Below are positions 18,101-62,345 of a stretch of 64,000 nt of DNA, in pieces. Each line of letters begins with the position of its first letter. Within the stretch, counting starts at the first letter, position 1. A program made the position numbers and the translations under genes. Below the pieces are notes generated by a model that was given only the letters and a program-made list of their open reading frames with translations, was not told where the DNA came from and did no database searches. This DNA is from Candidatus Omnitrophota bacterium (lineage in GTDB: Bacteria; Omnitrophota; Gorgyraeia; Aquiviventales; Aquiviventaceae): positions 20,023 to 84,022 of the forward strand of contig JAHFGV010000004.1 of NCBI GenBank assembly GCA_023247255.1, in the 5' to 3' direction.

Positions 18101-21043
18101 ACCAATCGGAAAGACGTCGCTGCCGTTGGGGGAAGTCACCTGAACGGCTCCCTTGATTCGAAAGACGTTGTTGGAGGTATCAAAGATGGCGGGCGCATCT
18201 ACATTGCTGATCTTGACGCACGTGTTGCCACCGATGGCATCCGGAATCGTCCACGGGAAGCTTCCGGCCGAGGCCAGCGTCGATGCTACGATCGATGTGT
18301 ACGTACCCCCGCATCCTGTGCTTGAATACTCCAACTTCACGTTATTGACGCCAGTACCGTTGATGGTCCAGGTAATGTTCTGCGTGGTGCCGACAAGCCA
18401 CACCTCGGTTCCACTGTTAGGGCTGTCGACGACAATCGAGGCCACGATTGTGAAATCCGCATCGGATTCATCGAACGTCGTGGCATCCCCGTTTTGCTCC
18501 ACTTTAATTCGCGAGAACGACCCGATTGCAGCAGTCGGAATGGTCCAGGCATAAGTACCCGTTGCCGAAGCGGCTGTCACGATCGTATCTCCGTTTGGCG
18601 CTGCGTAGGAACCCCCACTGTTCTTGGAATAGTAGATGTTCACGCCTGTGGGGGGCAATGTTCCGGTAGAGGTCCAAGTGATGTTGTAGGTCTTTAGGGT
18701 TTCCCAGTTCGGGCTCTGGGGTCCGTTTGGCGTAGTGACGGTGATTCGCCCTTTAATGCTGAAATCAATGTCGGACTGGTCGTTTACACCTGAGGCATCT
18801 GAGGAAAGTTCGGCACCGACCCGTAGGTCGGTGCGAATCTTGTCCGGAACCGGTGTCCAGTTGTAGGTCCCGACGCTGGGAGTCAACCCTGTCGCAATCG
18901 TGCTATCGAAAGTGGTACCGCTGGCTGTATAAAGCTTCAACGTCACGGTGCCGTTGTCATCCAAGTTCCCCGTCCGACCCCATGTGATTGTGCGGCAGTT
19001 CGCTCCAGGACAAGAGTCGCCTACGAACCAGGACACCGCGGTGTTCGGAGAGGTCACCGTGAGTGTTCCTTTAACAGTGAAGTCGGCATTGGAAACATCA
19101 GAGTTCCGAACGAGCAGGTCCAAGTCGGTGATCTTCACCCTCAATGTAGACACGTCGAGATCCGTCGCCCCAATGCTCGCGGGAATCGTCCAGGGAATGG
19201 TATCCAGATTCGCGCAGACGTCGGAGGCAATGCCCAACGGGTAGGTGCTGCCGCCGTTCGTTGAAAGCTCAATCTTCAGTCTGTGTGCAGGCCCTGCTGA
19301 ATTGCACGTTCCACTTGATTCCAGCTCGGCGGCGTGCTTCCAGGTGATATTGTGGCTCTCTCCGACTTTCCATACCTCGCTGCCGTTGGGGCTTTTGACA
19401 GTCAACGGCGTAAACTCAGTGACGAAATATTGGACATCGGCTGCAATCGCCGCAGCGATGCTCTGGTTGGTTCCTGAGCGCACGCTGGCAAAAGTGGTCG
19501 AGGTGGTGGCCGCTCCAATTGGCGGTAGCAGCTCCACGGCAAACCCAAGATCATCCGCATAGTCTCTGGTCGTGTTGCTGGAACCTGTCGCCGTCGTTGT
19601 CGCTGCTCCAAGAACCAGTGTCCGGCTAGGTCTCACCGCGGTGAGTGAGGCGGTTTTCTGAGCCGGTAGAACATAGCCAGTCGTGCCACCGGCTCCCAGG
19701 CCGTGCGAAGCAGAACCGCTCAGTTTCAACTGTGTGGATGTGCAGGCGGGTGAGCAGTCGCTGCCGGTAAGAACGTGCCAGTTACCGTTCACTGGGTTGC
19801 TGACGGAACCCCCAACGCTATGGCCGCTTACATTGATCAGATCGCCGGTACTCAAGCCGTGAGCAGCGCTTGTCGTTATCATGATCGGCGTAGCGTCCGT
19901 CGATGAAGAAATCGCAATGCGGGCGGGTGTGCCGCCCGTGCCGCCTCCCCAGGAGTGGGTGCCTTTTTGAACCAAGCTGATTCCATCGATGAGATCCACA
20001 ACGTGGTAGCGTATACGTCCCTCGCTATTTGTGTTGGTCGACGCATAGCCTCTGGTAAAAGTAATGGTGGTGCCGCTCGTTACTGTGCCCCGAGCGTAGA
20101 TTTGATTGTCCCATCCTGCTATCCCTGAGCCACCGGTGAAAGAGGTGAACAACAACGCGTTCGCCCCGCCGCTGGAAAGACCAGGGCTCAGGGGCCCGGA
20201 GTTGACAGGCAGCGGCCCTCCACCGTCGGGATCCAGTCCGTTGTTCGTGGCGGTTTGGTTCGTGGCTGCGGTGCCAGGCACCGGCAGCGAGACTATCCCG
20301 GTGTAAACTGTCGTATCCGTCAAAAACTCGATGACCTGCCACACGATCTGAGTGGCTTTGGTGCCTGTGCCAGCAAACCGCTCGACTCTCAGATTGGAGT
20401 TATCGATAAACGAAGGGAGTAGGTAGAGTTGATGCGTCTGGTTTTGGCTGGTGAAGGCGCCTTTGGTCATGACAATCGGCACGGCGTGACAGGGAAAGGT
20501 TATGGGAGTACACCCGCTCGTATCCAACGCCATCGGGATAGTGATGGTCTTGTTCAAGTCTGTCGGCTGCAGGCTCGAAATGCCTCGCTGTACGCTGACT
20601 CCATCGACGAACTCAATAACCTGCCAGGAGACGCTCGCGCCGCTGGTGCCACCCCCACGCTCGATGTCAATGGTGTTGTTATCCTCAAACTGGGCGACGA
20701 AAAACCAGTTCTGATCGCGTTGTTGGCTAATGCTGTCGGCTTCGGTAGACAGCAAGATGATGGATTTGGATTGGTCCACCGGGTAGGTCAGGTTGATGGC
20801 TTGAACGACGTCGTCCGTGTCAAAGTTGGCGATGCCGCTTTGTATCCTTTTAATCTGCACGGCTTCTGCAAGGGGGCCCCAGAAACTCCAGATGAGGACA
20901 GCAATGAGCGCTGTCCAACCGGCGAGAAACCGTGGAACAAAAACGGTCGGTCGCGCCCGTACAGGCCGCATCAGAAAATCAGGGGCGTCATTGCTGTGCA
21001 TCATCAGCATCTGTGGGAATGCCTTCCGAAAGCTCCGGCTCAA
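3161..21043 (-). CDS. giant repetitive cell-surface protein (~5,960 aa; ~50 tandem Ig-like/Kre9_KNH-like ~85-90-aa repeats; adhesin/S-layer-like)
   Basis: Single uninterrupted 17.9-kb ORF. The N-terminus has a hydrophobic signal or anchor (FLAGWTALIAVLIWSFWGPLAEA). The probable start is MRPVRARP at ~20971, which removes the overlap with the upstream lipoprotein gene. A ~640-aa unique N-region precedes about 50 repeats of consensus GSLTLTAPNGGExWxVGxxQNITWTxxGxIxNVKLEYSTDGGxTYPNxIxAST...YAWTIPDAIxTxxRVRVSDxxDxTVxDxSDANFKI. A ~900-aa unique C-terminal region is Ser/Thr- and coiled-coil-rich. Confidence 0.85.
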   Translation of the reverse strand: MSRSFRKAFPQMLMMHSNDAPDFLMRPVRARPTVFVPRFLAGWTALIAVLIWSFWGPLAEAVQIKRIQSGIANFDTDDVVQAINLTYPVDQSKSIILLSTEADSISQQRDQNWFFVAQFEDNNTIDIERGGGTSGASVSWQVIEFVDGVSVQRGISSLQPTDLNKTITIPMALDTSGCTPITFPCHAVPIVMTKGAFTSQNQTHQLYLLPSFIDNSNLRVERFAGTGTKATQIVWQVIEFLTDTTVYTGIVSLPVPGTAATNQTATNNGLDPDGGGPLPVNSGPLSPGLSSGGANALLFTSFTGGSGIAGWDNQIYARGTVTSGTTITFTRGYASTNTNSEGRIRYHVVDLIDGISLVQKGTHSWGGGTGGTPARIAISSSTDATPIMITTSAAHGLSTGDLINVSGHSVGGSVSNPVNGNWHVLTGSDCSPACTSTQLKLSGSASHGLGAGGTTGYVLPAQKTASLTAVRPSRTLVLGAATTTATGSSNTTRDYADDLGFAVELLPPIGAATTSTTFASVRSGTNQSIAAAIAADVQYFVTEFTPLTVKSPNGSEVWKVGESHNITWKHAAELESSGTCNSAGPAHRLKIELSTNGGSTYPLGIASDVCANLDTIPWTIPASIGATDLDVSTLRVKITDLDLLVRNSDVSNADFTVKGTLTVTSPNTAVSWFVGDSCPGANCRTITWGRTGNLDDNGTVTLKLYTASGTTFDSTIATGLTPSVGTYNWTPVPDKIRTDLRVGAELSSDASGVNDQSDIDFSIKGRITVTTPNGPQSPNWETLKTYNITWTSTGTLPPTGVNIYYSKNSGGSYAAPNGDTIVTAASATGTYAWTIPTAAIGSFSRIKVEQNGDATTFDESDADFTIVASIVVDSPNSGTEVWLVGTTQNITWTINGTGVNNVKLEYSSTGCGGTYTSIVASTLASAGSFPWTIPDAIGGNTCVKISNVDAPAIFDTSNNVFRIKGAVQVTSPNGSDVFPIGSSRNITWNNNGTVSGTVEIRYSTDGGSTYPNVIVASTPIGGASGSYSWSPIPDVTGGINNTVKVRVIPSDTVNVADDASDSNFSIKGTVVLGAPNGGGTCTVGQSCPVSWTKTGSIGNVELHYSTDGGATFPAGKLIATGLDPVSGTPYNWATPDDIDSDIRVRVRLVTDTSVEDQSDANFSIKGTLTLVAPNNGEVWKVGETNRNITWTRVGTTGSMAGNVELRYSTNGGTSYDTLINSTTAASALSYNWNPIPDAIETQLRVKVTLVTDTTVFDTSDANFTIKGQLTVTQPNTNLIWFVGDTTRNITWNTNGTVSGVKLYYATDGATFSNPIAGGASISNVGSYNWNPVPDIIGTNVKVRLENAADSTVYDDSDTGFTVKGTLTLTAPNGSQSWVVGDTQNITWTKTGTLSGNVKLLYSTDGGATYPDPGNMITNSVAVTAGSYAWTVPDAIDNDLRVKIVYLNETSVTDESDANFTIQGSLNITFPDGGEVWELGTSQNITWNLTGTVGAVKLEYSTDGGSTYPNLIIASTPSDTDPPTGGNNGQYAWTIPSNAPLSTTARVRITPVTAGKAAANASENNFRLKGKLTITAPNGGQTWVVADPQNITWTTLGAIANAKLEYSTDSGSTWPAGNVIVSSTPAGAGSYTWIVADGISAQCRIRISDASDASVIDASDADFTIRGSLALTAPNGGQSWVVGTTQNITWTKTGTLPNVKLEYSTNSGVSYTNLIVASTSGGNLSYPWTIPDSIGTTRRVKVTYDTTPDVLDLNDTSDADFTIRGSITVTAPNGNEGWPINATQNITWVKTGTLTGNLKLEYSTDGGTTYPVGNLISNTVPATDTSYAWTVPDNPTTQGRVRITQLDDTNVTDPSDANFSIKGSLFIQAPDGGEVWKVSESRNITWTRGGSIANAKLDLSKDGGATFPIAITASTPAANLSYAWTLPDEIDTDLRVRITDVNDNTVTDASNGNFTIKGTLTLGSPNGGETWIVNDSRNITWAKTGTIPNVKLEYSTNGGTTYPNVIVSSTAGSSLSFAWTIPDSIGTQLRVRITNVDDVTVTDDTNANFTIKGSVTLTAPNGGETWIVGSSQNVTWTKQGSIANVKLEYSKNGFADELQTFTIVASTPAAPLSYAWTIADAIGAQLKVRVSDASDSTVNDVSNTNFTIKGALTLTAPNGAELWTVNSSRAVTWTRTGSITNVKLEYSTNSGSTYPNLITASTDAATGTYAWTLPDAITATAKVRVSDTSDATVQDESNAVFKIVGVLTLTAPNGGEKWTVGNSQNVTWTRIGSIANAKLEYSTDGGTTYPNLIVATTVASSLSYAWTIPNTPSATVKVKVSDVDFPSDVSDVSDANFKIKAGLTLTAPNGGEVLTVGSAQNITWTTVGTAANVKLEYSADGGSTYPNVITASASNSGSYSWTVADAISTTVRVKVSDAADTDAFDTSDVNFKIRGSLLLTAPNGGEGWQINTVQNITWTRTGSLPNVKLEYSTNGFSDELQTYVITASAPADPPPVDNNGLYAWTIPNTPSATVKLRVSDASDATVSDLSNANLSIKGSVTLTAPNGSEVWVVGATQNVTWNVFGAITNVKLQYSTDGGATWPAGNLITASTSANTDPPVGADNGQYSWTIPDVIGTQLRVRVSDAADASVFDDSDANFKIRGSITVSAPNGGETWIVGASQNIAWTRTGSFANVKLEYSTNGFSDELQTFLISASAPASPLNFAWTVPDAIGTTLKVRASDAADITVVDISNAHFEIKGSLTVTSPNGVEVWKVGESRNITWTKTGTIATVKLEYSTNGGTTYPNIIASSTSATSGSYTWSVPDAIGTQLRVKITHTGDATVNDASNANFEIKGQIALTSPNGGEVWIVGTSQNITWTKQGTFATVKLEYSTDGGSTYPTVISASADAVTGTPYAWTIPDAIGTQLRVNVTSNADTTVNDASDANFKIVGSLTLIAPNGSEAWAVGTSQNVSWTKVGSITNVKLEYSTNGGTSYPNLITASTGAGTGIYAWTIPDAISATVRLKVTDASDSTVYDTSNADFKVMGGFVLTSPNGGEVWAVGESRNITWTTAGSVVNVKLEYSTDGGATYPNLIIASTSNTGTYAWTVPDAISTTVKVRISDASDANAFDVSNGNFKIRGSLLLISPNGGEAWPISTTQNVTWSKMGSIANVKLEYSTDGGATYPNLIIASVFATSGTPYAWTIPDAPATTVKVRVSDVSDSTVFDESNANFKIQGLLTITAPNGGEVWIVGSSYNITWTKFGSILNVKLQYSTDGGITWPDPGKVIIASTAAATLSYTWTIPDDISNTVKVRITDTGDTSVFDDSNANLGIKGSLTVTAPNGGEIWVVADTQNITWTKTGTIPNVKLEYSKNGFADELQTFLITASVPSTPSAYAWTIPDAISNTVKVRLSNVSDPTVSAVSNAYFAIKGSLTLNAPNGGETWIVGASQPITWSKVGSIANVKLEYSSDGGVSYPDVILASTSASAGSYSWTIPDAITTTARVKVTDVSDSSVFDISNTNFKIAGSLTVTAANGAEAWLIATTQNITWTRTGSIANVKLEYSTNGGTSYPNLIVASVSATTGTPYAWVIPDTPTTQAKIKVTNTADSSVYDESNANFNIRGSVTLSEPNGSEVWVVGESRAITWMRTGSFPNVELRYSTDGGTTYPSLITASTSAGTLSYAWIVPDALSTGVRVKITDTGDSAVTDVSDANFKIKGSVTLTSPNGAEVWIVGASRNITWTRTGSFANVKLEYSTDGGTTYLNLITASAPAAPLSYAWTIPDAINTSLKVKISDENDATVVDVSDANFTIKASLTLNAPNGGETWIVGSSQNITWAKTGTIVTVKLEYSTDGGSTYPNVITLSSPAAALSYVWSIPDTLSSTVRVKITHLTDATVNDTSNGNFKIAGSFTLTAPDGGEVWIVGATQNITWTKTGSIATARLDYSTDGGVSYPSAITSSVSASALSFAWTTPDNMSSTVKVKITDTSDSTVFDASNGNFKIAGSFTLLSPNGGEKWPAGSTQSITWTKTGSMVNAKLEYSTDGGTTYPNLIVATTPASALSYAWVLGTTTSTQVRVRITDVSDSTVFDASNANFKIMGGFVLSSPNGGEVWVVGETRNITWTTVGNVANVKLSYSVNGGTTYPNAISASTTNTGSYAWTIPDAIGTTLRVKVEDVLDPDAYDESNANFKIKGSLTLSSPNGGEIWTVESNQNISWTKAGSIANVKLEYSTDGGTTYPVGSLIATSLNATTGTPFAWTIPDAISTTVKVKVTDVTDATVYDESNASFTIRGSFNLTAPNGGEKWTVGTTQSILWSTFGTIPNVRLEYSTDGGSSYPNVITAASSNTGSYNWTIPNAITTTMRLRVSNAADAGTFDASDADFKVKASFAMTAPDGGEVLVVGVSQGITWTTAGTVANVKLEYSTNGGTTYPNGIATSAPNTGTFAWTVPDAISATVRIRVSDVTDTVDAFDTSNGNFKIRAGFTVTAPNGGEAWTVGSVQNITWISAGTVANVKLEYSTDGGATYPSVVASSIANIGTYAWTIPDAITTAARLKVSDVNDTTASDASNTNFKIQGFLRITAPNGGEKWTVGSVRTVTWDRNGSIPFVKLEFSTNGGGLYAPITASTSNTGSFAWAIPDNISTNCLVKVSDTNDATVNDASDVIFKIQAGFTVTAPNGGEVWAVGSARTITWLTNGTVSFVKIDYSTDSGSSFPNLITSSTSNTGSYGWTVPDNVTGSVRVRVSQTTDAEAFDTSDGDFRIRVIFTLTSPNGAEQWRVGQVQNITWGIVGTIPNVKLQYSRDGFNADLQTINASAPSIGSYGWTVPDAISNTVRVRVSDPNDIGALDDSNADFRITGDFTVTAPNGTEQWVVGSVQNITWAKTGSVSNAKIEYSTNSGGTWTTIAGLTPNNGTFAWTIPDTITAQGRVRLSDPVDATANDISNADFKIKAGFTLTAPNGAEIWTVAQSRTIAWTNTGTVSLVKLELSTNGGTAYQPIQENYQTLNDGVVQNTGAYTWTVEDAISTQVRIRVSSSTDSDANDASDGNFKIQGSLTITNPNGGENFPIGQLRDISWLRLGSIANVKITYSTDAGTTYPNVIVASTPANPTFYPWTVADAPTTMARVKVEDVSDATVFDASDASFNIQGNFTISAPNGGELWSVGESRNIAWSWGGTIPNVKLTYSTNSGSTYSDVIANSAPNGVGSSGTFNYAWMVPDSISSAVRVRIEDVNDANVSDVSNADFKIQGRLNIVTPNGLERWVVNEIRTISWTTAGTLPTVKLEYSTDGGATYPAGNVIVALLTNTGSYNWLVPNTVSMTSRVRVVNTADVTVSDQSDADFKIDLYKVSFRVRDLLTNNHLDQLTVSAGTPSQPGSTQPPAYTWTESGLSSIIKDKPLQYGSWSAKFSRVSYGDQTLNFVVDRDYPETAPLDVFMETQVVHIWEAVTEFAYVPAVQALPNLNPPIAAVADSLTVTSTLRRDGSTVTGPVLCQVDIYDGATLIQSFVANGPPNALGFYSSPQYNFTWSPTSLTAGKVYSVVTTINIATGGVFKTPRTLTINVEQKLQDVKHEVNKNLDVPLSQVRTDIQGTLDTFTHSISTSISTLDTAAKNSQTASNTLISAANQSQATANDLRTVANQQSAKLLTPQEINTGLPLIIRWRGPRDTQGLSLSPKITIENFDKIAVVSEVAMQPISGAQNLFEWSSEWGLAEQVITATKFQPGKTITVTVKDDAIGSFQVGTIFVKRPEGRLLMKTSAKIGETISIQLAGADNWTPLIELSADGVVLTAKTPMKKVGSDGKVTTFEYLVPESVGSLVPIGKSVVALVTESLTGFFDQGSFQFTGTSLDDLSGQIAASSASRGVIQDTYTAVKNLQGSLGGDGQLGQKLEVLKQRIDRIPKAVAEEGSNVRMKQAINDVAERISALAGDEGYDFSQLMEMGVEKGLEKSDSIQNIRKKTDTVQGATEVMQLLMENKLGGIDDPVVHVIYQ

Positions 21044-21426: not shown

Positions 21427-22857
21427 TCAGGTCTCGCTGGTTACCTGACTTGCGTCGCGTCCGGGCTGGCTGGTCCCTACGAAACGAAAGGTGATGGCCG
21501 GTTGTCCCATCGCCTGACGGGTTAGAATACCGTGCATCGTTCGGCCATCCCATTCCCCTCGCCAGCAGATGATCTCGCCACGAGGACCGGTCTGCATCGT
21601 TTCCCAGAGTATCGTTCCATCGGACTGAACGCTCAACGAATAGTTTGAACTCTCAAAACCCTGATCGCTGAGGGACGTAGAGGTAACCTTTCCCGCTTCG
21701 AATTGGAGACGATCGATCTGCGGCGCCACGTCACCGGTAGCATCCAGAGGACGAATCTGTACCTGCCAGATCGTTCCGGCTAATCGGGATGGCTGGATAA
21801 AATTCGCCAATTGAGTCGTTGGACCCGCGGGGAGTGCATCCACAGGGTCCAGAATCGGTAGCGTCTGTTCCGTGGCGAGTGAGCGCAGCGCCTGCCGCAT
21901 AGTCGCGAGATTTTTAGCATAGAGCCCAGCGGCGCAGAGTAATAGGATCGCAACCGACAGGCTTGCAGTCAAAAACAAGGAGGGCCCTGGATGCGGATAA
22001 CTATCTTGTACGGATCGAGACATCAGACGAGGATCGTCGGACCTCGACGCCAAAGCCGGTTCCGGTCCAGAGTAAACCGGTGCGCGATCCTCACGGTGCG
22101 TTTCATCAGCAGGACGATAGGCGTGTTTCGACCGCTCACGAACCGACGTCACGAACGCCGCTGAGCCGATAATCCCATGGGATGTCAATTCCTGAACGAA
22201 CCGATCCCATGCAGAAATCGGCACCGAGTGCAGGTAATCCTCATAGCTTACCCCAGGCTGTTCGCGGCGGATTAGCTCGAGAACCTCGCTCGATTCAACC
22301 GACAGCAACGGTCTGACCGTAGGGGAGGGTAAGGTAGAAATAGAAAGAAGATAACTCGGGTAGCTACTCCACGGGTAAGCGTATGGATCGTCCGTTAGGC
22401 CGAGCCGTCGTGGTTGGACATGGAGATAACCAGTGATTCGAAGCAGCGAAGGCGCCTTTTCCAGAATCGTCGATTTGAATCGTTCGCGAAACACATGGCC
22501 CGTGCGACCGTAGCGACGGTTAACGTACTTGGTGTAGCGCGAATTCACCCCATGCATGATATCGGAGACGGTTGCCCGATCCGTCAGCTCAAGACACAAC
22601 TCGATGGAATCTGGCAGGAGAACATACCCAAAGACCTTGAAACCGGAGGACTGGCGGTACTGCTCCAGCAATCCAAGATAATGGGTGTAGTCTTGGTCAT
22701 CCCGAAACAGACTCATCCCTTCGGCAGCCCTAGCAGCGACGTAGTACAGTGCCCCTTCGACATGGATGCGTAGAGGTCGTGGCATCGTATTACTGCGCCC
22801 TCCAACCGGTTGGTGCCTGGCACTGGGTGGGTGCCTGGCACCCGGTGCCAGGCACAA
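21427..22857 (-). CDS. Y1/HUH transposase-like (RAYT/IS200-like) domain protein with degenerate active site, fused to a TM helix and a periplasmic domain
   Basis: The N-terminal ~130 aa fit the IS200/RAYT fold pattern (LRIHVEGALYYVAARA...FGYVLLPDSIELCLEL...MHGVNSRYTKYVNRRYGRTGHVFRERFKSTIL). The HUH position reads SIE and the GRYK Tyr is Phe (ERFKS). The TM helix is LFLTASLSVAILLLCAAGLYA, and the C-terminal domain is shared with the 229-aa secreted protein. The probable start is MPRPLRIHVEG at ~22785. Confidence 0.6.
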   Translation of the reverse strand: MCLAPGARHPPSARHQPVGGRSNTMPRPLRIHVEGALYYVAARAAEGMSLFRDDQDYTHYLGLLEQYRQSSGFKVFGYVLLPDSIELCLELTDRATVSDIMHGVNSRYTKYVNRRYGRTGHVFRERFKSTILEKAPSLLRITGYLHVQPRRLGLTDDPYAYPWSSYPSYLLSISTLPSPTVRPLLSVESSEVLELIRREQPGVSYEDYLHSVPISAWDRFVQELTSHGIIGSAAFVTSVRERSKHAYRPADETHREDRAPVYSGPEPALASRSDDPRLMSRSVQDSYPHPGPSLFLTASLSVAILLLCAAGLYAKNLATMRQALRSLATEQTLPILDPVDALPAGPTTQLANFIQPSRLAGTIWQVQIRPLDATGDVAPQIDRLQFEAGKVTSTSLSDQGFESSNYSLSVQSDGTILWETMQTGPRGEIICWRGEWDGRTMHGILTRQAMGQPAITFRFVGTSQPGRDASQVTSET

Positions 22858-34194: not shown

Positions 34195-34385
34195 CGTGCC
34201 CTCAATCCAGTGGCGAGGAGGTGTTAGCAGGCTGGGAAAAAGTCCCGCAGCGCTCAAGGCTGAGAGAATTTTCGATTGTCGATTTGTTGTGTTTTTCAAT
34301 CGGCAATCGACGATTGACAATCGACAATTCGTTGGGCCTCCGCCTCCAGCCAACCGCTAACAGCCCCGATCCCTGAACAAATAGG
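34195..34385. repeat. family-A fragment plus family-B palindromic element copy
   Basis: Reads gagaattttcgattgtcgatttgttgtgtttttcaatcggcaatcgacgattgacaatcgacaattcgttgggcc, which is related to the 2800-3010 and 61420-61510 / 62070-62300 copies. Confidence 0.6.
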
Positions 34386-34402
34386 TGTTTTCCCGTAACC
34401 TG

Positions 34403-34624
34403 TTAGCGCAACCTAAGCCACACATAGAGCGCGGAGGCCAGGCAAAAAACCCCTGAACCTAAAAGGCACAGACCGACACTCATACGGTACTGCATCACTA
34501 CTTGATCCAGCTTACCCCAGGATCGGCTGGTAGACTTACTGAGTCTCTGGAATTGTTTGGAAAACCAAAGCAGACCAATGCCGCCGACCACCGAAATGAT
34601 CCCTGCAATCATTGTGAGAATCAT
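34403..34624 (-). CDS. small two-TM membrane protein (hypothetical)
   Basis: 73 aa with two hydrophobic helices (MILTMIAGIISVVGGIGLLWF; VGLCLLGSGVFCLASALYVWL). Confidence 0.3.
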   Translation of the reverse strand: MILTMIAGIISVVGGIGLLWFSKQFQRLSKSTSRSWGKLDQVVMQYRMSVGLCLLGSGVFCLASALYVWLRLR

Positions 34625-45673: not shown

Positions 45674-46201
45674 CTAACGGTAGTTTTCCGCTTGGATAGG
45701 CACCCCGAAATCCTTTGATTTTACAGTCTGAATAACCATCCGTAAATCATCGACCTGCTTGCCTGAGACCCTTACCGTGTCTCCGTCAATTCGTGGCTGT
45801 ACCTTCAATCCGAGAGACTTGATCACCCTTACGATCTCCTTAGCCTTTTCTGAAGAAAGTCCCTGCTGAAGAACCGCTTGTTGCTTCACCCCCCCTGCAG
45901 GCAAAAGCTCGGGGGCCTTCCAGGCTAAGGCTGTAAGCGAAACTCCACGTTTGGCTAGCTTGGTCTCGATCACATCAATGACACTCTTGATTTGTGCTTG
46001 ATGGTCAGCCGTGACTTTGACGTTCAGTAAGGCTTCCTCAAAAGTCACGCTGGCACTGCTGTTTCGAAAGTCAAAACGTGTGCCAATCTCTTTTTGCGCC
46101 AGCTGAATGGCGTTGCGAAACTCCTGAAGATTGACTTTCGAAACCAGATCCATGCTGTGTTCTTGAGCCATCAGCGATGTCCGACTGAGGAAGACAGACA
46201 A
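45674..46201 (-). CDS. yajQ: YajQ-family (UPF0234) nucleotide-binding protein
   Basis: MDLVSKVNLQEFRNAIQLAQKEIGTRFDFRNSSASVTFEEALLNVKV... matches the YajQ pattern (FDIVSEVDLQEVRNAV..A..E...RFDFRG). The likely start is ~46153. Confidence 0.75.
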   Translation of the reverse strand: MSVFLSRTSLMAQEHSMDLVSKVNLQEFRNAIQLAQKEIGTRFDFRNSSASVTFEEALLNVKVTADHQAQIKSVIDVIETKLAKRGVSLTALAWKAPELLPAGGVKQQAVLQQGLSSEKAKEIVRVIKSLGLKVQPRIDGDTVRVSGKQVDDLRMVIQTVKSKDFGVPIQAENYR

Positions 46202-47100
46202 GCCTCAAGGGCTGGGAGCAACTGCCCGTAGCGAAATCGATAGCCCGCTTGAAGGCAAACGCGTGGGAAGACTCGTTGTCCCGTAAGCAATAAAGTCGCC
46301 ATCTCCCCAAGCATAACACGCAATGCCACGGCGGGCACCGGCACCCAACAGGGACGATGCATCCGATCGGCAAGGCTGCGGCAAAACGCACGCATCGTCA
46401 CCGGCTCTGGAGCGGTGGCGTTAACTGCACCAGTCACCTGGGCATGACTCAACAACCACTCTATAAGAGCGACGAGATCATCCCGATGGATCCAGGATAC
46501 CCATTGACGCCCGCTGCCCAACACACCCCCTACAAAGAATCGAAAGGGATCGACCATTTTTGCCAGAGCCCCTGCCCCCGCAGCCAAAACCAGACCGATG
46601 CGAAGTCGAATCACACGAACCCCTAAAGACTCCGCACGAGAAGCTTCGTTCTCCCACATCTGGCAGATATGGGCTAGAAAACCCTTTCCTGCGGGAGCGC
46701 TTTCGTCCAACAACTCGTCTGAGTGGGGACCATAATAGCCAATCGCTGAGGCGTTGATCAAAACATTCGGTCTTCGGCTAAGACGAGTCATCGCATCGAC
46801 CAACCGATGGGTAGATTGAATGCGACTCTCCCGAATCTGAATCTTCTGCCTCCGACTCCAGCGCTTGGATGCAATCGATTCCCCGGCAAGATTAACCAGG
46901 CCATCACAGGTCTCAAGAACGTGTGGCCATTCGGAACCCTCCCACTCAAGAAACCGGATGGGAGAAAGCGAATCTCCTTTTTCCACATTCAATCTCCGAG
47001 ACTGACGGGTCAGTACAAACACCTCATGGCCATGCCGGATTAAATGAGAACACAATGCCTGACCGATGAATCCCGTCCCTCCGGTGATGAGCAATCTCAT
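46171..47100 (-). CDS. yfcH: TIGR01777-family NAD-dependent epimerase (YfcH-like, C-terminal DUF1731)
   Basis: MRLLITGGTGFIGQALCSHLIRHGHEVFVLTR...VNLAGESIASKRWSRRQK...GSGRQWVSWIHRDDLV... is collinear with E. coli YfcH. Confidence 0.8.
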   Translation of the reverse strand: MRLLITGGTGFIGQALCSHLIRHGHEVFVLTRQSRRLNVEKGDSLSPIRFLEWEGSEWPHVLETCDGLVNLAGESIASKRWSRRQKIQIRESRIQSTHRLVDAMTRLSRRPNVLINASAIGYYGPHSDELLDESAPAGKGFLAHICQMWENEASRAESLGVRVIRLRIGLVLAAGAGALAKMVDPFRFFVGGVLGSGRQWVSWIHRDDLVALIEWLLSHAQVTGAVNATAPEPVTMRAFCRSLADRMHRPCWVPVPAVALRVMLGEMATLLLTGQRVFPRVCLQAGYRFRYGQLLPALEACLSSSVGHR

Positions 47101-47104
47101 TTTT

Positions 47105-47225
47105 TAAGAACGGATGCCCCACCCCGATCGGGACGACAGGATGTCGTCCCCCCTAAGTCTTGCTCCACCCTGTGGCCCATAGCCTTCAGCCGTGGCGCAA
47201 TGGCGGGGTTGATGGTTTAACAGGA
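47105..47225. repeat. family-A palindromic element, diverged intergenic copy
   Basis: Reads ...ccccgatcgggacgacaggatgtcgtccc...ccaccctgtggcccatagccttcagccgtggcgcaatggcggggttgatgg, including a 9-bp stem (gggacgaca/tgtcgtccc). Confidence 0.6.
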
Positions 47226-47345
47226 TGCTGAAAAACCCTCGATTGGCTCTAGGCTCAAGGCTGGAGGCTCCAGGGAACGATTCGGTCATCGTCGAGAAGC
47301 CTGTTCTTTCCTCGAGCCTTGAGCGCTGCGGGGCTTTTTCCGCAG
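47215..47345. repeat. family-C MITE-like element (short variant)
   Basis: Termini are ttaacaggatgctgaaaaaccc ... ggctttttccgcagcctgctaaag. The internal stem is ctcaaggctggagg/cctcgagccttgag. Confidence 0.6.
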
Positions 47346-47357
47346 CCTGCTAAAGCG

Positions 47358-47615
47358 TTACCGACCGTTTCCAGGCTGTTGGCGTCGTCGACGAACGATA
47401 CGTTCTGCTTCAAACCAGTCTTGTTGGTCGAAACCCTCCCGCCTGCCCCGACGCTCAAACAGTTCATAAGCGACTTGAGCGACCTCTTCATTGCTGATGG
47501 TCCCCTGAGCCTGCGATACCGTAGACTTTGACGTAGGCTTTGAGCGAGTCAGGGCTGTCTCTGCAAGCGTGACACCGCTTCGCTTCGATCCCGATGAAAA
47601 ACCCATCCGTGGCAT
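47358..47615 (-). CDS. DUF2934-family small protein
   Basis: EEVAQVAYELFERRGRREGFDQQDWFEAERIV matches the DUF2934 core (IA.rAY.lwe.rG...G.d..DWl.AE..l). The N-terminal part of the ORF reads through the MITE, so the start is uncertain. Confidence 0.5.
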   Translation of the reverse strand: MPRMGFSSGSKRSGVTLAETALTRSKPTSKSTVSQAQGTISNEEVAQVAYELFERRGRREGFDQQDWFEAERIVRRRRQQPGNGR

Positions 47616-47719: not shown

Positions 47720-50038
47720 TTATCGATCCGGCCTTGTGGATGTTCCTTCATCCAATCGCTCGGCTAAGATCCTGGGATCGGTAGTCGGCAAAGTGCAGAC
47801 ATATCCTTGACACATATAAGCCGTGGGTTGTCCATTCACAGGACCCTGATGTTGCACATAAGGAGCGAAACCCTCCAACTCCTTCGCCTCCGAGCCTGTA
47901 GGACGTAACACCGTCACCGTCCTGGGTAGAAAGCGTTGATCGATCACTTCAATCATTTCTTTCGTTCTGGAATCGTCTCTATCACCGACGATGACGATCT
48001 CTCGTATTGGACCGAGTGCGAAATCCCAGTCAATCAAAAGTTGGGGATATCGAAAGGGCTCGGATTCCACTAGCGCCACCACACTCTCCAGCGCCCGACG
48101 ACCGAGATCTTCCAGATGAGGATCAGCCCTCAAGCGTCCCAGTCGCAACAGCAGCCCAATGGCCATGGAATTTCCGGATGGCGTTGCCCCGTCGTAGAAC
48201 TCTTTGACGGGAGCAATCAACTCGGGCTCTGTCCGATCCCTTAGAAAGAATCCTTCCTGTTGCGGATCCCAAAACCGCTCGATCATTACATCGACTAGTC
48301 GTTTGGCCCAAACCAAGTACTTCACGTCATATCCCGATTCATACACCTCCAGAAGGCCGTAGCCGAAAAAAGCGTAGTCTTCCAGTGTCCCGGGATAAGC
48401 GGCCTCTTTCTCGCGGTAGCGCCTGAGCAGCAATCCATCCTGTTGAAGGTGCTGCCAGATGAAGTCTGCCGCTTGGCGGGCCTTTATCAAATAGGAAGGT
48501 TCATGAAGGGTGGAAGCCCCGTAAGCCAGGCTGGCAATCATCAACCCATTCCACGAGGTCAAGATCTTGTCGTCTCGATGAGGACGCTTGCGTCTGGCAC
48601 GTTTGGCAAGAAGCTGCACCCGGTTTTGGGCAAGGCGCTCATCGAACGCCCTTGCCTTTAGACCGTTGCGTTTGGCGAACATCTCCAAAGGTTGTGTGAC
48701 ATGCAGAATACTCTTGCCATGCTCGAAATTTCCTTCCGGTGTGAGCCCGTAATACCGATTAAACCACTCGGCATCTTTTTCCCCCAATAGCTCGGTGATT
48801 TCTGCAGGCGTCCAGACATAGAATTTACCTTCTTGTCCCTCACTGTCAGCATCTTCAGCCGAATAGAAAGCGCCTGCTGCATCGGAAAGATCCCTCAGGA
48901 CATAATCCAATATCCCACGAGCCACCCTCGCGTACTCTTGACGTTGGGTAACCCGATAAGATTCAAGGAATGCCCTTGCCAACAAGGCTTGGTCATACAG
49001 CATCTTCTCAAAGTGAGGAACCAGCCACTGCGCATCGGTCGAATAGCGGTGAAAACCTCCTCCCAAATGGTCGTGAATCCCTCCCTGGGAAAGATGATCG
49101 AGGGTCGTTGTCACTAGCTCAAGCGCCTGATGAGTCTGAGTCCGAAGCCAATAGTGAAGCAGAAAAGAAAGCTCATGACCCCTGGGAAACTTCGGAGCGT
49201 TACCGAATCCGCCGTAGGTGGAATCGAACCACGCCACCGCCTGATTGAAAGCTCGATGAAGCGGATCGATGGTGAGTGTTCCAGAAGCGTGGGGGGTGGA
49301 TAGCCGCTCTTTCAGGATTGTGGTCAGCCGCTCAGCGGAGCTCAGCAGCTCTTCACGCCGATTCTTCCAAGCCTCTGCCACAGCAGGCAGGAGCTCTTGA
49401 AGCCCGATGAGATCGCCCCGACGCTGCGGTGGGAAATACGTACCTCCAAACACAGCTCTTCCATCCGGAGTCAGAATCACCGTCAAAGGCCATCCGCCGG
49501 CGCCTGTCATCAGCATCACGGCACTCATGTAGATATGGTCGATGTCTGGGTATTCTTCTCGATCGACTTTGATGGATACAAACCAACGGTTCAGCATTTC
49601 GGCAGTCTCAGCATCCTCAAACGATTCGTGTGCCATCACATGACACCAGTGACAGGTGGAATAACCGATGGATAAAAAAACAAGTTTGTCCTCTTGATTG
49701 GCTTTTTCGAAGGCATCTTTCCCCCAGGGATACCAGTCGACGGGATTGTAGGCGTGCTGCAACAGGTAGGGGCTTTTCTCTTGGATGAGCCTATTCGGTT
49801 TTGCTGGACTACGTTGGGCGTGATCCATTTTATCTTCCGAACCTCTTTCGGAAACTTTGGATGGAGCGTGTGGGCAACCGATAAGCGATACCGTCAGGAA
49901 CGATACGATGAGAATCTGCGCAAGCACTCTGCTTTGGAATAGAACTGTGGCGAATACAGAGATAGAACCAATCACCCTCGATGGCTTCGAACACATTCGA
50001 GATAAAAACCTCTTCGCCCTTTCGATAGGGTAGTTCAC
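47720..50038 (-). CDS. thioredoxin-domain protein, DUF255/YyaL (SPATA20-like) family with N-acyl-glucosamine-epimerase-like (alpha/alpha)6 domain
   Basis: [82 protein letters not shown]-terminal signal with lipobox-like LIGC. Start uncertain. Confidence 0.8.
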
Positions 50039-50129
50039 CTTCTCCCATTCGTCAAGTTATGGATGCCCCCCGGCCTTACCCCGCCCTTCTGGGGCTTTCC
50101 CAAAAGGGTGGGGCTTACGGTCGTGGTCC

Positions 50130-50292
50130 CTCCATCTATTCTAACAGGATGCTTAAAAATGCCAGTCGGTTCAGGGTTCGGGGTTCTGGGCTGGGGGCCA
50201 GGACCCGTCTCACCGACGAGCCGTGGTGTATTTGCCCCGAACCCTGAACCCTCAACCCAGAATTACGAAGGGTTTTTCCGCAGCCTGCTAAA
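50130..50292 (+). repeat. family-C MITE-like palindromic element (full copy)
   Basis: Reads taacaggatgcttaaaaatgccagtcggttcagggttcggggttctgggctgggggccagg...ccccgaaccctgaaccctcaacccagaa...tttttccgcagcctgctaaatc. It has terminal inverted repeats and an internal long stem. It lies in the divergent promoter region between the DUF255 gene and comF. Confidence 0.8.
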
Positions 50293-50399
50293 TCTACCTT
50301 GGGATATGCGACACTCGGGTGAGGCATTCGAAATCCCACCATCTATGTTCGGTCCGGGTAAGTCGAAACAGCGTGCATCCCCGTCCGTGATTCCTTACG

Positions 50400-51161
50400 T
50401 TGACAGTCAAAGTCATCTCATGCTATCTTGCCTGTCCCATGCTTCGTCACATCTGGGCAATGGCCGAGCTGGTCTACCCTCCTATGTGCAGCCTCTGTCG
50501 GGCACATCTTGGCTGCCCCTCTGAGATCATCTGTCATGACTGCAGGATGGACATGTCACGCAATAGCCCGCCGGTCTGCACCCAATGCGGACTGGGGCTC
50601 TCCGGGGCTTTTGACGCAAAGCTGTTGTGCACCGGATGCCGAAGAAAACCACCGGCGTTTGACATGGCCAGGGCCCCCTGGTGCTATCGTGGCCCTGTGC
50701 AACAAGCGATTCAGCAGTTCAAATATAACCACTGCTGGCGTTTGACGGACTGGCTGGTCCAAGGTATGGCCCGTTCGGCACTGACTGATTTGCCGATGGA
50801 GCAAATTGATTTCGTCGTTCCTGTCCCGATGCATTGGCTTAAGAAACGCCTGAAGGGTTTCGATCATACAGTCTTTTTGGCCCGATCGGTGGCGAGAATC
50901 CTAAATAAACCATTTGCTCCACAGCTGCTTCAAAGTATCCGATGGACGAAAAGCCAAACCCGTCTGGGGTTCACTCATCGATTTCGAAACGTCCGAGGGA
51001 AGTTTCGAGCAAGATCGGTTCCTCACTCGATCCCTCTGTTGGTCGATGACGTGCTAACCAGTGGGGCAACCGCTCACGCTTGTGCGAAGGCACTCAAAGA
51101 AGCCGGTGCCAGACAGGTCTTTGTCATCACCGCTGCCAGAACACCCTTGAGCCTCCAATGA
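50400..51161 (+). CDS. comF: ComF-family protein (double zinc ribbon plus phosphoribosyltransferase domain)
   Basis: CxxC...CxxC zinc ribbons (PPMCSLCRAH...CHDCRMD...CTQCG...CTGCRRK). PRT motif LLVDDVLTSGATAHACAKAL. The likely start is MAELVYPPMC at ~50460. Confidence 0.75.
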   Translation: MTVKVISCYLACPMLRHIWAMAELVYPPMCSLCRAHLGCPSEIICHDCRMDMSRNSPPVCTQCGLGLSGAFDAKLLCTGCRRKPPAFDMARAPWCYRGPVQQAIQQFKYNHCWRLTDWLVQGMARSALTDLPMEQIDFVVPVPMHWLKKRLKGFDHTVFLARSVARILNKPFAPQLLQSIRWTKSQTRLGFTHRFRNVRGKFRARSVPHSIPLLVDDVLTSGATAHACAKALKEAGARQVFVITAARTPLSLQ

Positions 51162-58444: not shown

Positions 58445-58734
58445 GTCGTGCGAGAAGAAGATGAAATGTCAGGTAGGGGTTCACTCACTAACTGGCACAA
58501 CCGCTCAAGGGCCTCGACCGCATCGGAACCTTCTGCCATAACCACAATACGCGAGCCCGGGTGGGCAGCAAGCGTCAACAGCCCCATGATCGATTTTCCA
58601 TCAACGATCTTCCGTCCCTTCTTGACAGTCACCCGGCTAGAATACTGCTTGGCCATCTGCACAAATATGGCTGCGGGACGGGCATGCAAGCCTTGGCGAT
58701 GCACCACAGTAACGGTACGCTGCACCCGCACCAT
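58441..58734 (-). CDS. ptsH: phosphocarrier protein HPr
   Basis: MVRVQRTVTVVHRQGLHARPAAIFVQ... carries the GLHARPA His15 motif. ...KSIMGLLTLAA is the Ser46 region. Confidence 0.85.
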   Translation of the reverse strand: MVRVQRTVTVVHRQGLHARPAAIFVQMAKQYSSRVTVKKGRKIVDGKSIMGLLTLAAHPGSRIVVMAEGSDAVEALERLCQLVSEPLPDISSSSRTT

Positions 58735-58749
58735 CTTTAGATCGGTCCT

Positions 58750-58972
58750 TTAACAGGCTGCTGAAAAAGGCGCATCTGCTGCGTTACATCCCTTACGGCT
58801 TCGTCAGCGTACTTTCTAGTACGCGCCTCCTCAGCCGAATCGAGCTGCGCCTTGCATCTCGCACCTTTTTGAGCAGCCTAAGAGTGCCTAACATAATGAG
58901 CACATGGCTGCGATCATTATGTTAGGCACTCTAGTATCCCGTGGGTTTTTCAGCAATCTGTTAAACCGAGAT
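58750..58972. repeat. family-C MITE-like element (long variant) between ptsH and yvcK; its terminus overlaps the yvcK stop codon
   Basis: Termini ttaacaggctgctgaaaaagg ... tttttcagcaatctgttaaacc. There is an internal second palindrome (gtgcctaacataatgagcaca...cattatgttaggcac). The TAA stop of yvcK is the TTA of the terminal ctgTTAaacc. Confidence 0.75.
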
Positions 58973-60253
58973 GGCCGACGGCAAAATCGATGGATCGGTC
59001 GGCGGTCCATTCGTAGTCACGGTTCGATTCCGTGAACCAACGATGAGGTTAATGATGCTCCGCGCCACTTTTTCGGGATCATGACGAACCACCCCATCGG
59101 TACTCACCAAATCGTCGGCAACCACTTGATAGCCCAACGCTCGGATCCGTTGAATATCGGACTCGACTGGAAATGCGTCTTCTTGTCGATACCGATCCAG
59201 AAAAGCATCCGGAATCGGACCGGTATTGACCAGACACACCTGGATGATACCCGGATTAGTGTGGGACACCAAAGCCCGGACATGATCGCTCGCCTTATAC
59301 GCATGGGTCTCACGAGTTTGGGTCATCACATTGCAGATATATAATTTCAAGGCCTTGGATGCTACAATCGCATCCACCATCCGATCCACTAACAAATTAG
59401 GAATGATGCTGGTGTATAACGATCCGGGACCGAGCACAATGGCGTTGGCATCACGGATCTGGGCCAACGCCTCAGCAGTGGGTTGGCATCCGGCAGGTTC
59501 CAGATATACTCGGCGGATGGGCACCGGCGCTTTGGAAATCTGAGTTTCTCCACGGGTGACGCTGCCATCTTCATGCTCGGCAATCAGACATACTTTCGCA
59601 TTTGTCGCAGGCACCACCCGTCCTCGAATGGCCAACACTTTACTCGAAGCCTGCACCGCCTGCTCGAAATCTCCGGTGATCTGTGTCATAGCGGTAATGA
59701 AAAGGTTACCGAAATTGTGCCCGCGCAAAGGAGAATTGCCGCCAAATCGGTACTGGAACAACTGCTGCATGAGGGGTTCGGCATCTGCCAACGCAACCAG
59801 ACAGTTGCGGATGTCTCCTGGAGGCAATATGTCAAACTCCTCCCGAAGGCGTCCGGAGCTGCCTCCATCATCAGCAACGGTGACTATGGTAGTGATATTC
59901 GTGGTGTATTGTTTTAATCCATGAAGGATGGTTGACAGTCCTGTTCCACCCCCGATAGCCACAATCCGGGGCCCTTTCTCCAGATGCCGCCGTTGAAACA
60001 CCCTTTCGACCAGATCTTGTTGCGGTCGCGGGGAAACCACGTCCAACAGCGAACGGACAATGAGCACCACCCCCATGCTGAGCGAAGTCAACCCAATCAC
60101 TAGAATCCCCAAGCTGATGGCACGCTGGAAAATGTTATTTTCCACAGGCAAAAGCGCAGAACCAATGCCAAAACAGAACACCCCACCCAACGCCAGAAGA
60201 ACCCAGCGCTTAACCTGCATTCCAGGATAAAGCCATTTCAGAAATCGCATCAC
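58961..60253 (-). CDS. yvcK: YvcK/UPF0052-family gluconeogenesis factor (CofD-like) with N-terminal membrane anchor
   Basis: IVAIGGGTGLSTILHGLKQYTTNITTIVTVADDGGSSGRLREEFDILPPGDIRNCLVALAD... Two N-terminal hydrophobic helices. Confidence 0.85.
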   Translation of the reverse strand: MMRFLKWLYPGMQVKRWVLLALGGVFCFGIGSALLPVENNIFQRAISLGILVIGLTSLSMGVVLIVRSLLDVVSPRPQQDLVERVFQRRHLEKGPRIVAIGGGTGLSTILHGLKQYTTNITTIVTVADDGGSSGRLREEFDILPPGDIRNCLVALADAEPLMQQLFQYRFGGNSPLRGHNFGNLFITAMTQITGDFEQAVQASSKVLAIRGRVVPATNAKVCLIAEHEDGSVTRGETQISKAPVPIRRVYLEPAGCQPTAEALAQIRDANAIVLGPGSLYTSIIPNLLVDRMVDAIVASKALKLYICNVMTQTRETHAYKASDHVRALVSHTNPGIIQVCLVNTGPIPDAFLDRYRQEDAFPVESDIQRIRALGYQVVADDLVSTDGVVRHDPEKVARSIINLIVGSRNRTVTTNGPPTDPSILPSAISV

Positions 60254-60439
60254 AGCTTCTGCTCCTTAAAAACTCTCAGACGAAATAATCCGTAATCTAA
60301 AATCCGGAATCGACCCCGCCATCGGGCCAACAGCCGAAGGCATAGACCCAGTTGGTTTGCTTAAGCGAACGGCTGGGGCTATATTCCTACGTGTTTGACG
60401 TCGAGCGTTTCACTCGTCACTGATCACTGGCCACTGACT

Positions 60440-60600
60440 TAGCAGGCTGCGGAAAAACCCTTCGGGGTTCTGGGTTGAGGGTTCAGGGTTCGGGGCAAAT
60501 ACACCACCGCTCGTCGGTGATACGGGTCCTGGCCCCCAGCCCAGAACCCCGAACCCTGAACCGACTGGCATTTTTCAGCATCCTGTTAGTGGCGACGCTC
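60440..60600 (-). repeat. family-C MITE-like element, inverted copy of the 50130-50292 element; its terminus overlaps the ptsN stop codon
   Basis: The reverse complement is near-identical to 50130-50292 (ccactaacaggatgctgaaaaatgccagtcggttcagggttcggggttctgggctgggggccaggacccgt...). The ptsN TAA lies inside the terminal ctgttagtgg. Confidence 0.8.
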
Positions 60601-61077
60601 ATCCTCTTCACGAAGAATCTTCAGAAGGGTCTTTTCATCTTTAGCGGCGCGTAGACCTTCCCGAAAGTGCCGATCCTTAAGTAACCGAGAAATCCGAGCC
60701 AGTGCTTTCAGATGGGGACCCGCGGAATCCACTGGGGCAACGAGGAGGAAAATCAAATGAACCGTCTCCCCGTCAAGGGCGTTGAAATCCAGTCCCGATC
60801 GAGACACCCCAAACGCAGAGATCAATTCAGCTACGCAATCGGATTTTCCATGAGGAATCGCAACCCCTTGCCCAATTCCGGTAGATCCTAATGCTTCCCG
60901 CTCCATAAGCACTTGAATGAGCCGTTCCACATCTTTAGACTTGATCGCTCCCGCTTTCACCAACAAGCCAACCAACTCACGAATAGCCTCTTCTTTTGTC
61001 TGAGCCTTGACATCACATGAAATCGCGCGTTCGTTGAGAAACCCCATAATGTTCATAGGTTCACCTAAAATTTTCAC
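60586..61077 (-). CDS. ptsN: PTS EIIA-Ntr (nitrogen regulatory IIA protein)
   Basis: PTS_EIIA_2 fold: ...KEEAIRELVGLLVKAGAI...GIGQGVAIPHGKSD... (active-site His). Confidence 0.8.
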   Translation of the reverse strand: MKILGEPMNIMGFLNERAISCDVKAQTKEEAIRELVGLLVKAGAIKSKDVERLIQVLMEREALGSTGIGQGVAIPHGKSDCVAELISAFGVSRSGLDFNALDGETVHLIFLLVAPVDSAGPHLKALARISRLLKDRHFREGLRAAKDEKTLLKILREEDERRH

Positions 61078-61334: not shown

Positions 61335-61510
61335 AGCGGGTGATGGGATTTGGCGCTCTCCATCCTTCGCTTACGCTCGGAACTCCCAGTCGGCCACCCG
61401 TCTCGCCTAAGGAATCATGAAATTACCTGGGAATTTTCGATTGTCGATTTTGGATTTTCGATTGGAAGACGGCCGTTCAATCGAAAATCGACAATCGTCA
61501 ATCGACAATT
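61335..61510. repeat. repeat block downstream of tRNA-Gly: an 18-nt copy of the tRNA-Gly 3' end, a conserved ~65-nt segment, and a family-B palindrome
   Basis: agcgggtgatgggatttg (61335-61352) is identical to the 3' 18 nt of tRNA-Gly. It is followed by gcgctctccatccttcgcttacgctcggaactcccagtcggccacccgtctcgcctaaggaatcatg and gggaattttcgattgtcgattttggattttcgattggaagacggccgttcaatcgaaaatcgacaatcgtcaatcgacaat. Confidence 0.7.
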
Positions 61511-61577
61511 TCCTCGGCTCTCTTGATTGACCGAAGGCTCGGCTCCCTTCAAATCCCATCACAAGAGTCTAAAACCC

Positions 61578-62024: not shown

Positions 62025-62345
62025 GTGGAGCCCCACAGGATGAGCCTGTGGCACAGGCACTCCCACACCTTGGGATTTTCGATTGTCGATTTTGGATTGT
62101 CGATTGGAAGACGGTTGTTCAATCAAAAATCGACGATCGTCAATCGACAATTTCCTCGGCTCTCTTGATTGAAAGCTCATCTTCCTTCGATCTCCTTAGG
62201 ACGTTCAAAGAAACTGCCTTGGGATTTTCGATTGTCGATTTTGGATTTTCGATTGGAAGACGGCCGTTCAATCAAAAATCGACAATCGTCAATTGACAAT
62301 ATCGTGATGCAACCGTCGAGGGTTGGGGGCGCAATGGCGGGATTG
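62025..62345. repeat. family-A 5' fragment, two family-B palindromes, and a family-A 3' fragment
   Basis: ccccacaggatgagcctgtggcac (62025), then ttttcgattgtcgattttggattgtcgattggaagacggttgttcaatcaaaaatcgacgatcgtcaatcgacaat (62070-62150) and a second copy (62225-62300), then gggggcgcaatggcgggattgc (62315-62340). Confidence 0.7.

Follow-up and report, generated by a model that had tools for sequence, protein, structure and literature searches.

Insertion sequences of the IS5 group measure about 1.2-1.35 kb according to the ISfinder descriptions and have a single ORF and repeats of about 16 bp. The Correia, ERIC, RUP and SPRITE elements are hairpins of 100-200 bp which lie in intergenic regions or within operons and can be co-transcribed. 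Most of these elements use TA targets and have IS630-like partners, or have no known partner. The names of palindromic intergenic MITEs, including SPRITE, have been listed together (PMC10969869). The duplication made by IS5 at its target site was described as 5'-YTAR-3' (PMC5009759) and was also given as CTAG (PMC10379815). MITEs of the IS5 family are known from P. gingivalis, where they carry the repeats of ISPg1, ISPg3, ISPg4 and ISPg9, and from N. meningitidis, where the ATR element carries those of ISNme1 (PMC4596501).

The window analysed here, i.e. the whole stretch of 64,000 nucleotides, contains short elements which are very probably MITEs of an IS5-group insertion sequence: non-coding hairpins with CAGG(A/C)TGC(T/G)GAAAAA ends, flanked by a YTAR duplication.

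The window copies and their genomic setting

A search with the terminus TTAACAGGATGCTGAAAAA (19 nt, at most 3 mismatches) gave eight matches in the window, which form four inward-facing pairs (47217/47353, 50141/50291, 58750/58964 and 60439/60589), whereas none of 100 dinucleotide-preserving shuffles contained a match (expected 0, observed 8). The four copies proposed in the sequence-only reading were thus confirmed, although a fifth, decayed one had been missed. The coordinates in that reading were approximately right: copy 2 starts at 50141 and not at 50130, and copy 1 ends at 47353 and not at 47345. The pattern search and the alignment of the ends located the following features:

50141-50291, no strand assigned: copy 2, the focal copy (pattern search and end alignment)
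50141-50144 and 50288-50291: target-site duplication of copy 2, CTAA and CTAA
50145-50159 and 50273-50287: terminal inverted repeats of copy 2, CAGGATGCTTAAAAA and the reverse complement of CAGGCTGCGGAAAAA
50160-50272: hairpin interior of copy 2
60439-60589, no strand assigned: copy 4, of the copy 2 subfamily, inverted
60439-60442 and 60586-60589: target-site duplication of copy 4, TTAG and TTAG
60443-60457 and 60571-60585: terminal inverted repeats of copy 4, CAGGCTGCGGAAAAA and the reverse complement of CAGGATGCTGAAAAA
47217-47353, no strand assigned: copy 1
47217-47220 and 47350-47353: target-site duplication of copy 1, TTAA and CTAA, one base different
47221-47235 and 47335-47349: terminal inverted repeats of copy 1, CAGGATGCTGAAAAA and the reverse complement of CAGGCTGCGGAAAAA
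58750-58964, minus strand: copy 3, a composite element with three repeats
58964-58961 and 58753-58750: target-site duplication of copy 3, TTAA and TTAA
34224-34406, no strand assigned: copy 5, decayed, with degenerate repeats
34224-34227 and 34403-34406: target-site duplication of copy 5, TTAG and TTAG
34228-34241 and 34388-34402: terminal inverted repeats of copy 5, CAGGCTG-GGAAAAA and the reverse complement of CAGGTTACGGGAAAA
about 34265-34332: interruption of the copy 5 interior by a hairpin of another repeat family

The alignment of the ends showed the inverted repeat CAGG(A/C)TGC(T/G)GAAAAA (15-16 bp) at both ends of all five window copies. The inverted termini recognised earlier are therefore conserved, but their outer 4 nt (T[TA]A[CG]) belong to the YTAR duplication and the repeat proper starts at CAGG. 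The 4-nt flanks vary among the copies and match within a copy, being identical in four of the five and off by one base in copy 1. A duplication of TTA or TA had been suggested as something to look for; a duplication is indeed present and its unit is the 4-bp YTAR. Copies 1, 2 and 4 have unequal ends, with CAGGATGCTGAAAAA on one side and CAGGCTGCGGAAAAA on the other, and this asymmetry recurs in other genomes. Copies 2 and 4, previously described as about 95% identical and inverted, share 95-96% identity over 151-154 nt (96.0% over 151 nt) in opposite orientation at two loci with different target-site duplications. Over its first 38 nt, copy 5 shares 95% identity with the B end of copy 1.

The window copies measure 129-207 bp between the repeat ends and none of them contains a complete ORF of at least 80 aa, in accordance with the earlier description of non-autonomous, MITE-like elements lacking an ORF. 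Their interiors had been called palindromic, and every copy does fold as a long imperfect hairpin, with z-scores from −4.4 to −7.8 against shuffled sequences (z −6.3 for copy 1; −70.6 kcal/mol and z −4.9 for the RNA fold of copy 2). A sixth small element with TTAG on both sides was found in the 8 kb beyond the window start (L207, the same contig). The same stretch also carries a solo repeat, TTAG followed by CAGGTTGCCGAAAAACTG (L207 16523-16545, about 3.3 kb before window position 1), which has no partner repeat; it sits on the stop codon of atpD (ATP synthase beta), 57 nt before the next gene.

All the window copies are intergenic, as judged from Pfam searches of the neighbouring ORFs. Copy 1 lies between a DUF2934 gene (47358-47615, minus) and an epimerase gene (46171-47100, minus), and copy 2 between the divergent DsbH-like (47720-50038, minus) and ComF-like (50400-51161, plus) genes. 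Copies 3 and 4 are located inside the gene string EIIA - CofD/YvcK - HPr - PtsI. The EIIA gene (60586-61077, minus) takes its TAA stop codon from the target-site duplication of copy 4, and the duplication of copy 3 (58964-58961) doubles as the TAA stop codon of the CofD/YvcK-like gene. The spacers in the window measure 333 nt (EIIA-YvcK) and 227 nt (YvcK-HPr); without copy 3 and one duplication, the stop of yvcK would be 15 nt away from the start of HPr. Relatives of this operon (protein identity at most 76%) mostly have far shorter spacers: the EIIA-YvcK spacer is mostly 10-80 nt and reaches 164 nt, and the YvcK-HPr spacer is 50-100 nt in most and about 2.1 kb, with an intervening stretch, in several. 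An empty site was looked for among the metagenome relatives of the operon, the nearest being 76% identical, and none was recovered.

An ORF runs through copy 2 (50063-50524), in which the assembly has a gene call at 50159-50524 (plus) of 121 aa with no Pfam hit. This call, which is probably spurious, begins within copy 2 and overlaps the ComF-like gene in its N-terminal zinc-ribbon part. A scan of the region for promoters and terminators gave no excess over shuffled sequence and flagged none of the window copies as a terminator. One weak promoter-like match (50165-50138, minus; CTGGCA, 16 nt, TAGAAT, with TG) has its −35 element in the end of copy 2 and its −10 element in the flank and is directed at the DsbH-like gene. 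The ENA metagenome contig k141_1983974 (ERZ27276474, 121.8 kb), which is 100% identical to the window, ends inside copy 4 (60512), and the Logan contigs L002 and L003 both begin inside copy 3 (58779). Independent assemblies thus stop inside these two copies, which indicates that the repeats fragment metagenome assemblies.

A second, unrelated family of hairpin repeats (GGAATTTTCGATTGTCGATTTTGGATTTTCGATTG / CAATCGAAAATCGACAATCGTCAATCGACAATCC) was noticed in the same DNA. One of its copies is nested in copy 5 and others flank two tRNA genes; the 476-aa Y1_Tnp-like ORF at 21427-22857 (minus) may be a RAYT-like gene tied to this family. The ORF at 3161-21043 (minus) encodes 5960 aa and is made up of a unit of about 285 nt (95 aa) repeated some 40 times in tandem, with 60-80% identity among the units; the assembly record gives only faint Pfam hints for this ORF. 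The hairpins of the second family are at:

2790-3023: hairpin of the second family
34265-34332: hairpin of the second family
61429-61513: hairpin of the second family
62074-62105: hairpin of the second family
62217-62300: hairpin of the second family
L207 20990-21065: hairpin of the second family

Full-length partners and mode of insertion

The 18-nt pattern TARCAGGMTGCKGAAAAA was searched for in 596 Gb of sequence comprising one genome per species, and at least 120 loci were found. Since about 139 chance matches to a pattern of this length are expected in 596 Gb by our own calculation, unpaired single hits elsewhere carry no weight. Among the matches listed, 64 loci are accompanied by a partner repeat that faces inward at a distance of at most 1.5 kb, an arrangement whose probability by chance is negligible. 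Most of these listed pairs are 119-313 bp apart, which corresponds to the size of MITEs, and the paired copies come from Acidobacteriota, Nitrospirota, NC10, Myxococcota, Chloroflexota, Planctomycetota, Proteobacteria and others.

Ten of the listed pairs are 1271-1360 bp apart and each encloses a single ORF, of 349-408 aa in nine of them and disrupted (157 aa) in L048. In these listed full-length elements, YTAR was present at the end left unconstrained by the pattern in all ten cases and the 4-nt flanks were identical in nine. Of the listed pairs, 36 have YTAR at each end; the base at Y is the same at the two ends in 30 of them, and the base at R in 33. The two ORFs that were scanned, L098 and L099, encode DUF772 (PF05598) plus DDE_Tnp_1 (PF01609) domains and match the NCBIfam model NF033581 'IS5 family transposase' with 255-285 bits (cut-off 140). 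InsH1 of E. coli IS5 matches this model too (366 bits) and is 24% identical to the two transposases. Relatives about 62% identical, annotated as 'IS5 family transposase' and having the same type of repeat, are found on plasmids of cultured Skermanella and Azospirillum. The parent is thus assigned to the IS5 type, because full-length elements with the same repeat and YTAR encode a DDE transposase of the NF033581 IS5 family. The sequence-only reading had pointed to an IS630/Tc1 parent and set IS5 aside; the transposases encoded by the full-length carriers of the repeats reverse that choice.

That reading had also noted that the window holds no cognate transposase, and tblastn over the 64-kb window and the 8 kb that precede it found no IS5-type transposase. 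The interiors of the MITEs and the full-length elements share no similarity beyond about 16-18 nt, and the window MITEs are therefore not simple deletion derivatives of these elements. An origin of the interiors from subterminal sequence of the insertion sequences was ruled out by the lack of any match beyond about 18 nt. In IMG/VR, paired copies were present on 8 of 32 viral contigs bearing the motif (L222, L224, L233, L235 and four more); these copies are of MITE size, with two on L233. Phages are a possible vehicle for the spread of the family, and IMG/VR contigs can include host DNA.

We infer mobilisation in trans, and the following transposition chemistry, for the window MITEs. The two 15-16-bp repeats would be recognised, and cut at their outer ends, by an IS5-type DDE transposase whose gene would lie at another place in the genome or have belonged to a former resident. 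The enzyme would then make a staggered cut of 4 bp in a YTAR site and insert the element there, and repair of this cut would duplicate the 4 bp. Stop codons are natural targets, since each strand of any YTAR site includes a TAA or a TAG. The duplication would regenerate the stop, so that an insertion on a stop codon would be harmless and tolerated, and this would explain the two window copies located exactly on stops inside the PTS-Ntr-like operon. At many other loci among the matches listed, a crude stop-to-stop ORF call places a converging ORF so that its stop codon is formed by the far-end duplication.

The composite copy and its hairpin core

The two outer termini of copy 3 were found as described. 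It is a composite which contains an internal repeat (58866-58880) and a nested hairpin (58881-58932). Read along the minus strand, its parts are:

58960-58946, minus strand: outer terminal inverted repeat
58932-58881: nested hairpin of 52 nt with perfect 19-bp arms, AGAGTGCCTAACATAATGA...TCATTATGTTAGGCACTCT
58880-58866, minus strand: inner terminal inverted repeat, TAGGCTGCTCAAAAA
58768-58754, minus strand: far terminal inverted repeat

The stretch from the inner to the far repeat forms a core hairpin of about 127 nt. The nested hairpin is unique in the window. A strain variant of 97% identity obtained from a different sample (L004, 1-60) lacks it and differs in this alone; the hairpin represents a very small mobile palindrome or else an insertion that is unstable. 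Rfam at gathering thresholds identified two tRNAs in the window and no family for the MITEs. An Rfam E-value search of 58700-59000 gave only sub-threshold matches of miRNA models to the nested hairpin.

The layout of copy 3 was also found in MAGs labelled Nitrospirota, Sulfotelmatobacter, NC10, Rokubacteria, Thermodesulfobacteriota, deltaproteobacterium and Planctomycetota. In these doubled-repeat elements the outer repeat is followed after 19-28 or 74-78 nt by the inner one, the inner repeat always has C at position 10 (a G-to-C change giving a C·C mismatch) and the target-site duplication flanks the whole unit. A derivation of the doubled repeat from the full-length elements was ruled out, as these contain no internal copy of the repeat. 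Some contigs with the hairpin core carry 4-6 copies in 8-10 kb. The loci with a doubled repeat are:

L031, L064, L091, L112, L019, L090 and L116: core of about 122-127 nt, doubled repeat, C at position 10
L073, L054, L069, L010, L059, L097 and L088: further loci with a core of about 122-127 nt, a doubled repeat and C at position 10

The core motifs GCAAGGC, GGCGTAC-loop-GTACG and AACG are kept in 26 copies from several phyla. In the core alignment, 94.8% of the cells at 35 consensus pairs are paired and changes on both sides occur in 19 pairs; since the 26 aligned copies include many related Nitrospirota copies, these counts represent non-independent events. None of 500 shuffles reached these values, and slid controls were 30-41% paired.

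Alternative explanations and comparison with known elements

MITEs of an IS630/Tc1-mariner element, which would duplicate TA, could account for the TA present on both sides of every copy, and the repeat resembles by eye what we take to be mariner-type ends such as ACAGGTTGGCTGATAAG. The duplicated unit, however, is 4 nt long, the bases flanking TA co-vary in the listed pairs (Y in 30 of 36, R in 33 of 36) and the flanks are identical in nine of the ten listed full-length elements. Moreover, the partners scanned (L098 and L099) encode DUF772 plus DDE_Tnp_1 proteins of NF033581 and not an IS630-type transposase. We consider this very improbable explanation effectively refuted. Just as improbable is the proposal that the conserved termini are a host regulatory operator or protein-binding motif and the palindromes regulatory hairpins rather than mobile DNA. 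The intergenic position of all copies, the place of copy 2 in a divergent promoter region and the weak promoter-like match spanning its left end (50165-50138, minus) would agree with such a role. It is contradicted by the target-site duplications, by the same motif bounding 1.3-kb transposase-coding elements in unrelated phyla and by the opposite orientations of copies 2 and 4 relative to their neighbouring genes; promoter- and terminator-like matches are, besides, no commoner in the region than in shuffled sequence. The sequence-only reading had named occurrence of the termini without the internal palindrome as the sign of an operator. Termini without the palindrome do occur, but they bound insertion sequences of 1.3 kb or form the solo remnant and do not appear as an operator, which supports a transposon origin. 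REP- or BIME-like extragenic palindromes, moved by an IS200-like Y1 transposase of the RAYT type, would suit a genome rich in palindromic repeats and the 476-aa ORF at 21427-22857 (minus), which has a weak Y1_Tnp match (E 9.5e-6, 26.2 bits, cut-off 23). REPs are not known to leave a target-site duplication, whereas the window elements have 4-bp duplications together with IS5-type terminal repeats and a length of 130-215 bp; REPs have been described as 20-40-bp palindromes tagged GTAG or CGTC (PMC3733652). The Y1-like gene fits the CAATCGA-type hairpins, the other repeat family of the window, more plausibly, and a REP-like nature of the elements is most unlikely.

A different proposal accepts MITEs by origin and adds that at least the copy-3 class is maintained for a role of its hairpin. 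Its architecture would have been preserved by selection across at least six phyla, either as a structure that the IS5-type transposase needs in transposition or as a mobile functional module, e.g. a terminator or mRNA-stability hairpin placed onto and after stop codons. The core motifs and covarying stems kept in the 26 copies from several phyla, the A5 and T5 runs that bracket the stem and the far-end duplications that form the converging gene's stop codon at many loci are in line with such a role. So is the orientation relative to the flanking ORFs, which is skewed (12 '--' against 4 '++', by the crude stop-to-stop ORF call), and one review lists SPRITE, a MITE resembling a terminator (PMC10969869). 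On the other hand, many of the 26 sequences are related, non-independent Nitrospirota copies, DNA-level processes can keep palindromes symmetrical without selection, no Rfam family matched and the terminator scan flagged no window copy. Copies 2 and 4 also point in opposite directions, and two copies, 3 and 4, are located within an operon. Given the relatedness of many aligned copies and the possible homogenisation of palindromes at the level of DNA, we treat a function of the core as possible only, and on balance it appears rather unlikely.

As MITEs of an IS5-group insertion sequence, the window elements belong to a well-known kind. With its repeat sequence, its wide range of phyla and its doubled-repeat hairpin subfamily, the family appears to be a new member of that kind; the literature searched on Nitrospira, Acidobacteria and Planctomycetes contained no description of this MITE family. 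Knowledge of the family is of use in annotation, as the repeats break assemblies, seed a probably spurious gene call and could be taken for regulatory motifs or RNA genes. The family also illustrates how small elements can settle on stop codons inside operons without harm via a YTAR target, and how a single type of repeat has come to be distributed over many environmental phyla. Only the conservation of the hairpin core across phyla could open up something new.

Like the Correia, ERIC, RUP and SPRITE elements, the window copies are short, fold into hairpins and lie between genes or within operons; they differ from most of these elements in that their partner and their 4-bp YTAR target are of the IS5 type. 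The autonomous relatives resemble E. coli IS5 and its group in their length of 1.27-1.36 kb, in a single DDE ORF which matches NF033581 as InsH1 does, in terminal inverted repeats of about 16 bp and in the 4-bp YTAR duplication. The IS5 repeat GGAAGGTGCGAATAAG also resembles CAGGCTGCTGAAAAAC of this family by eye. In contrast, the transposase of the relatives is only 24% identical to InsH1, and the window elements are non-coding derivatives of 130-215 bp, with no autonomous copy seen in the source contig. With the P. gingivalis MITEs and ATR, the window elements have in common that they are short and non-coding, carry no transposase remnant and have repeats which match those of full-length IS5-family elements. 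The window family differs from them in the sequence of its repeat, in its long covarying hairpin interiors, in its doubled-repeat subfamily and in its occurrence in many phyla as opposed to one genus.
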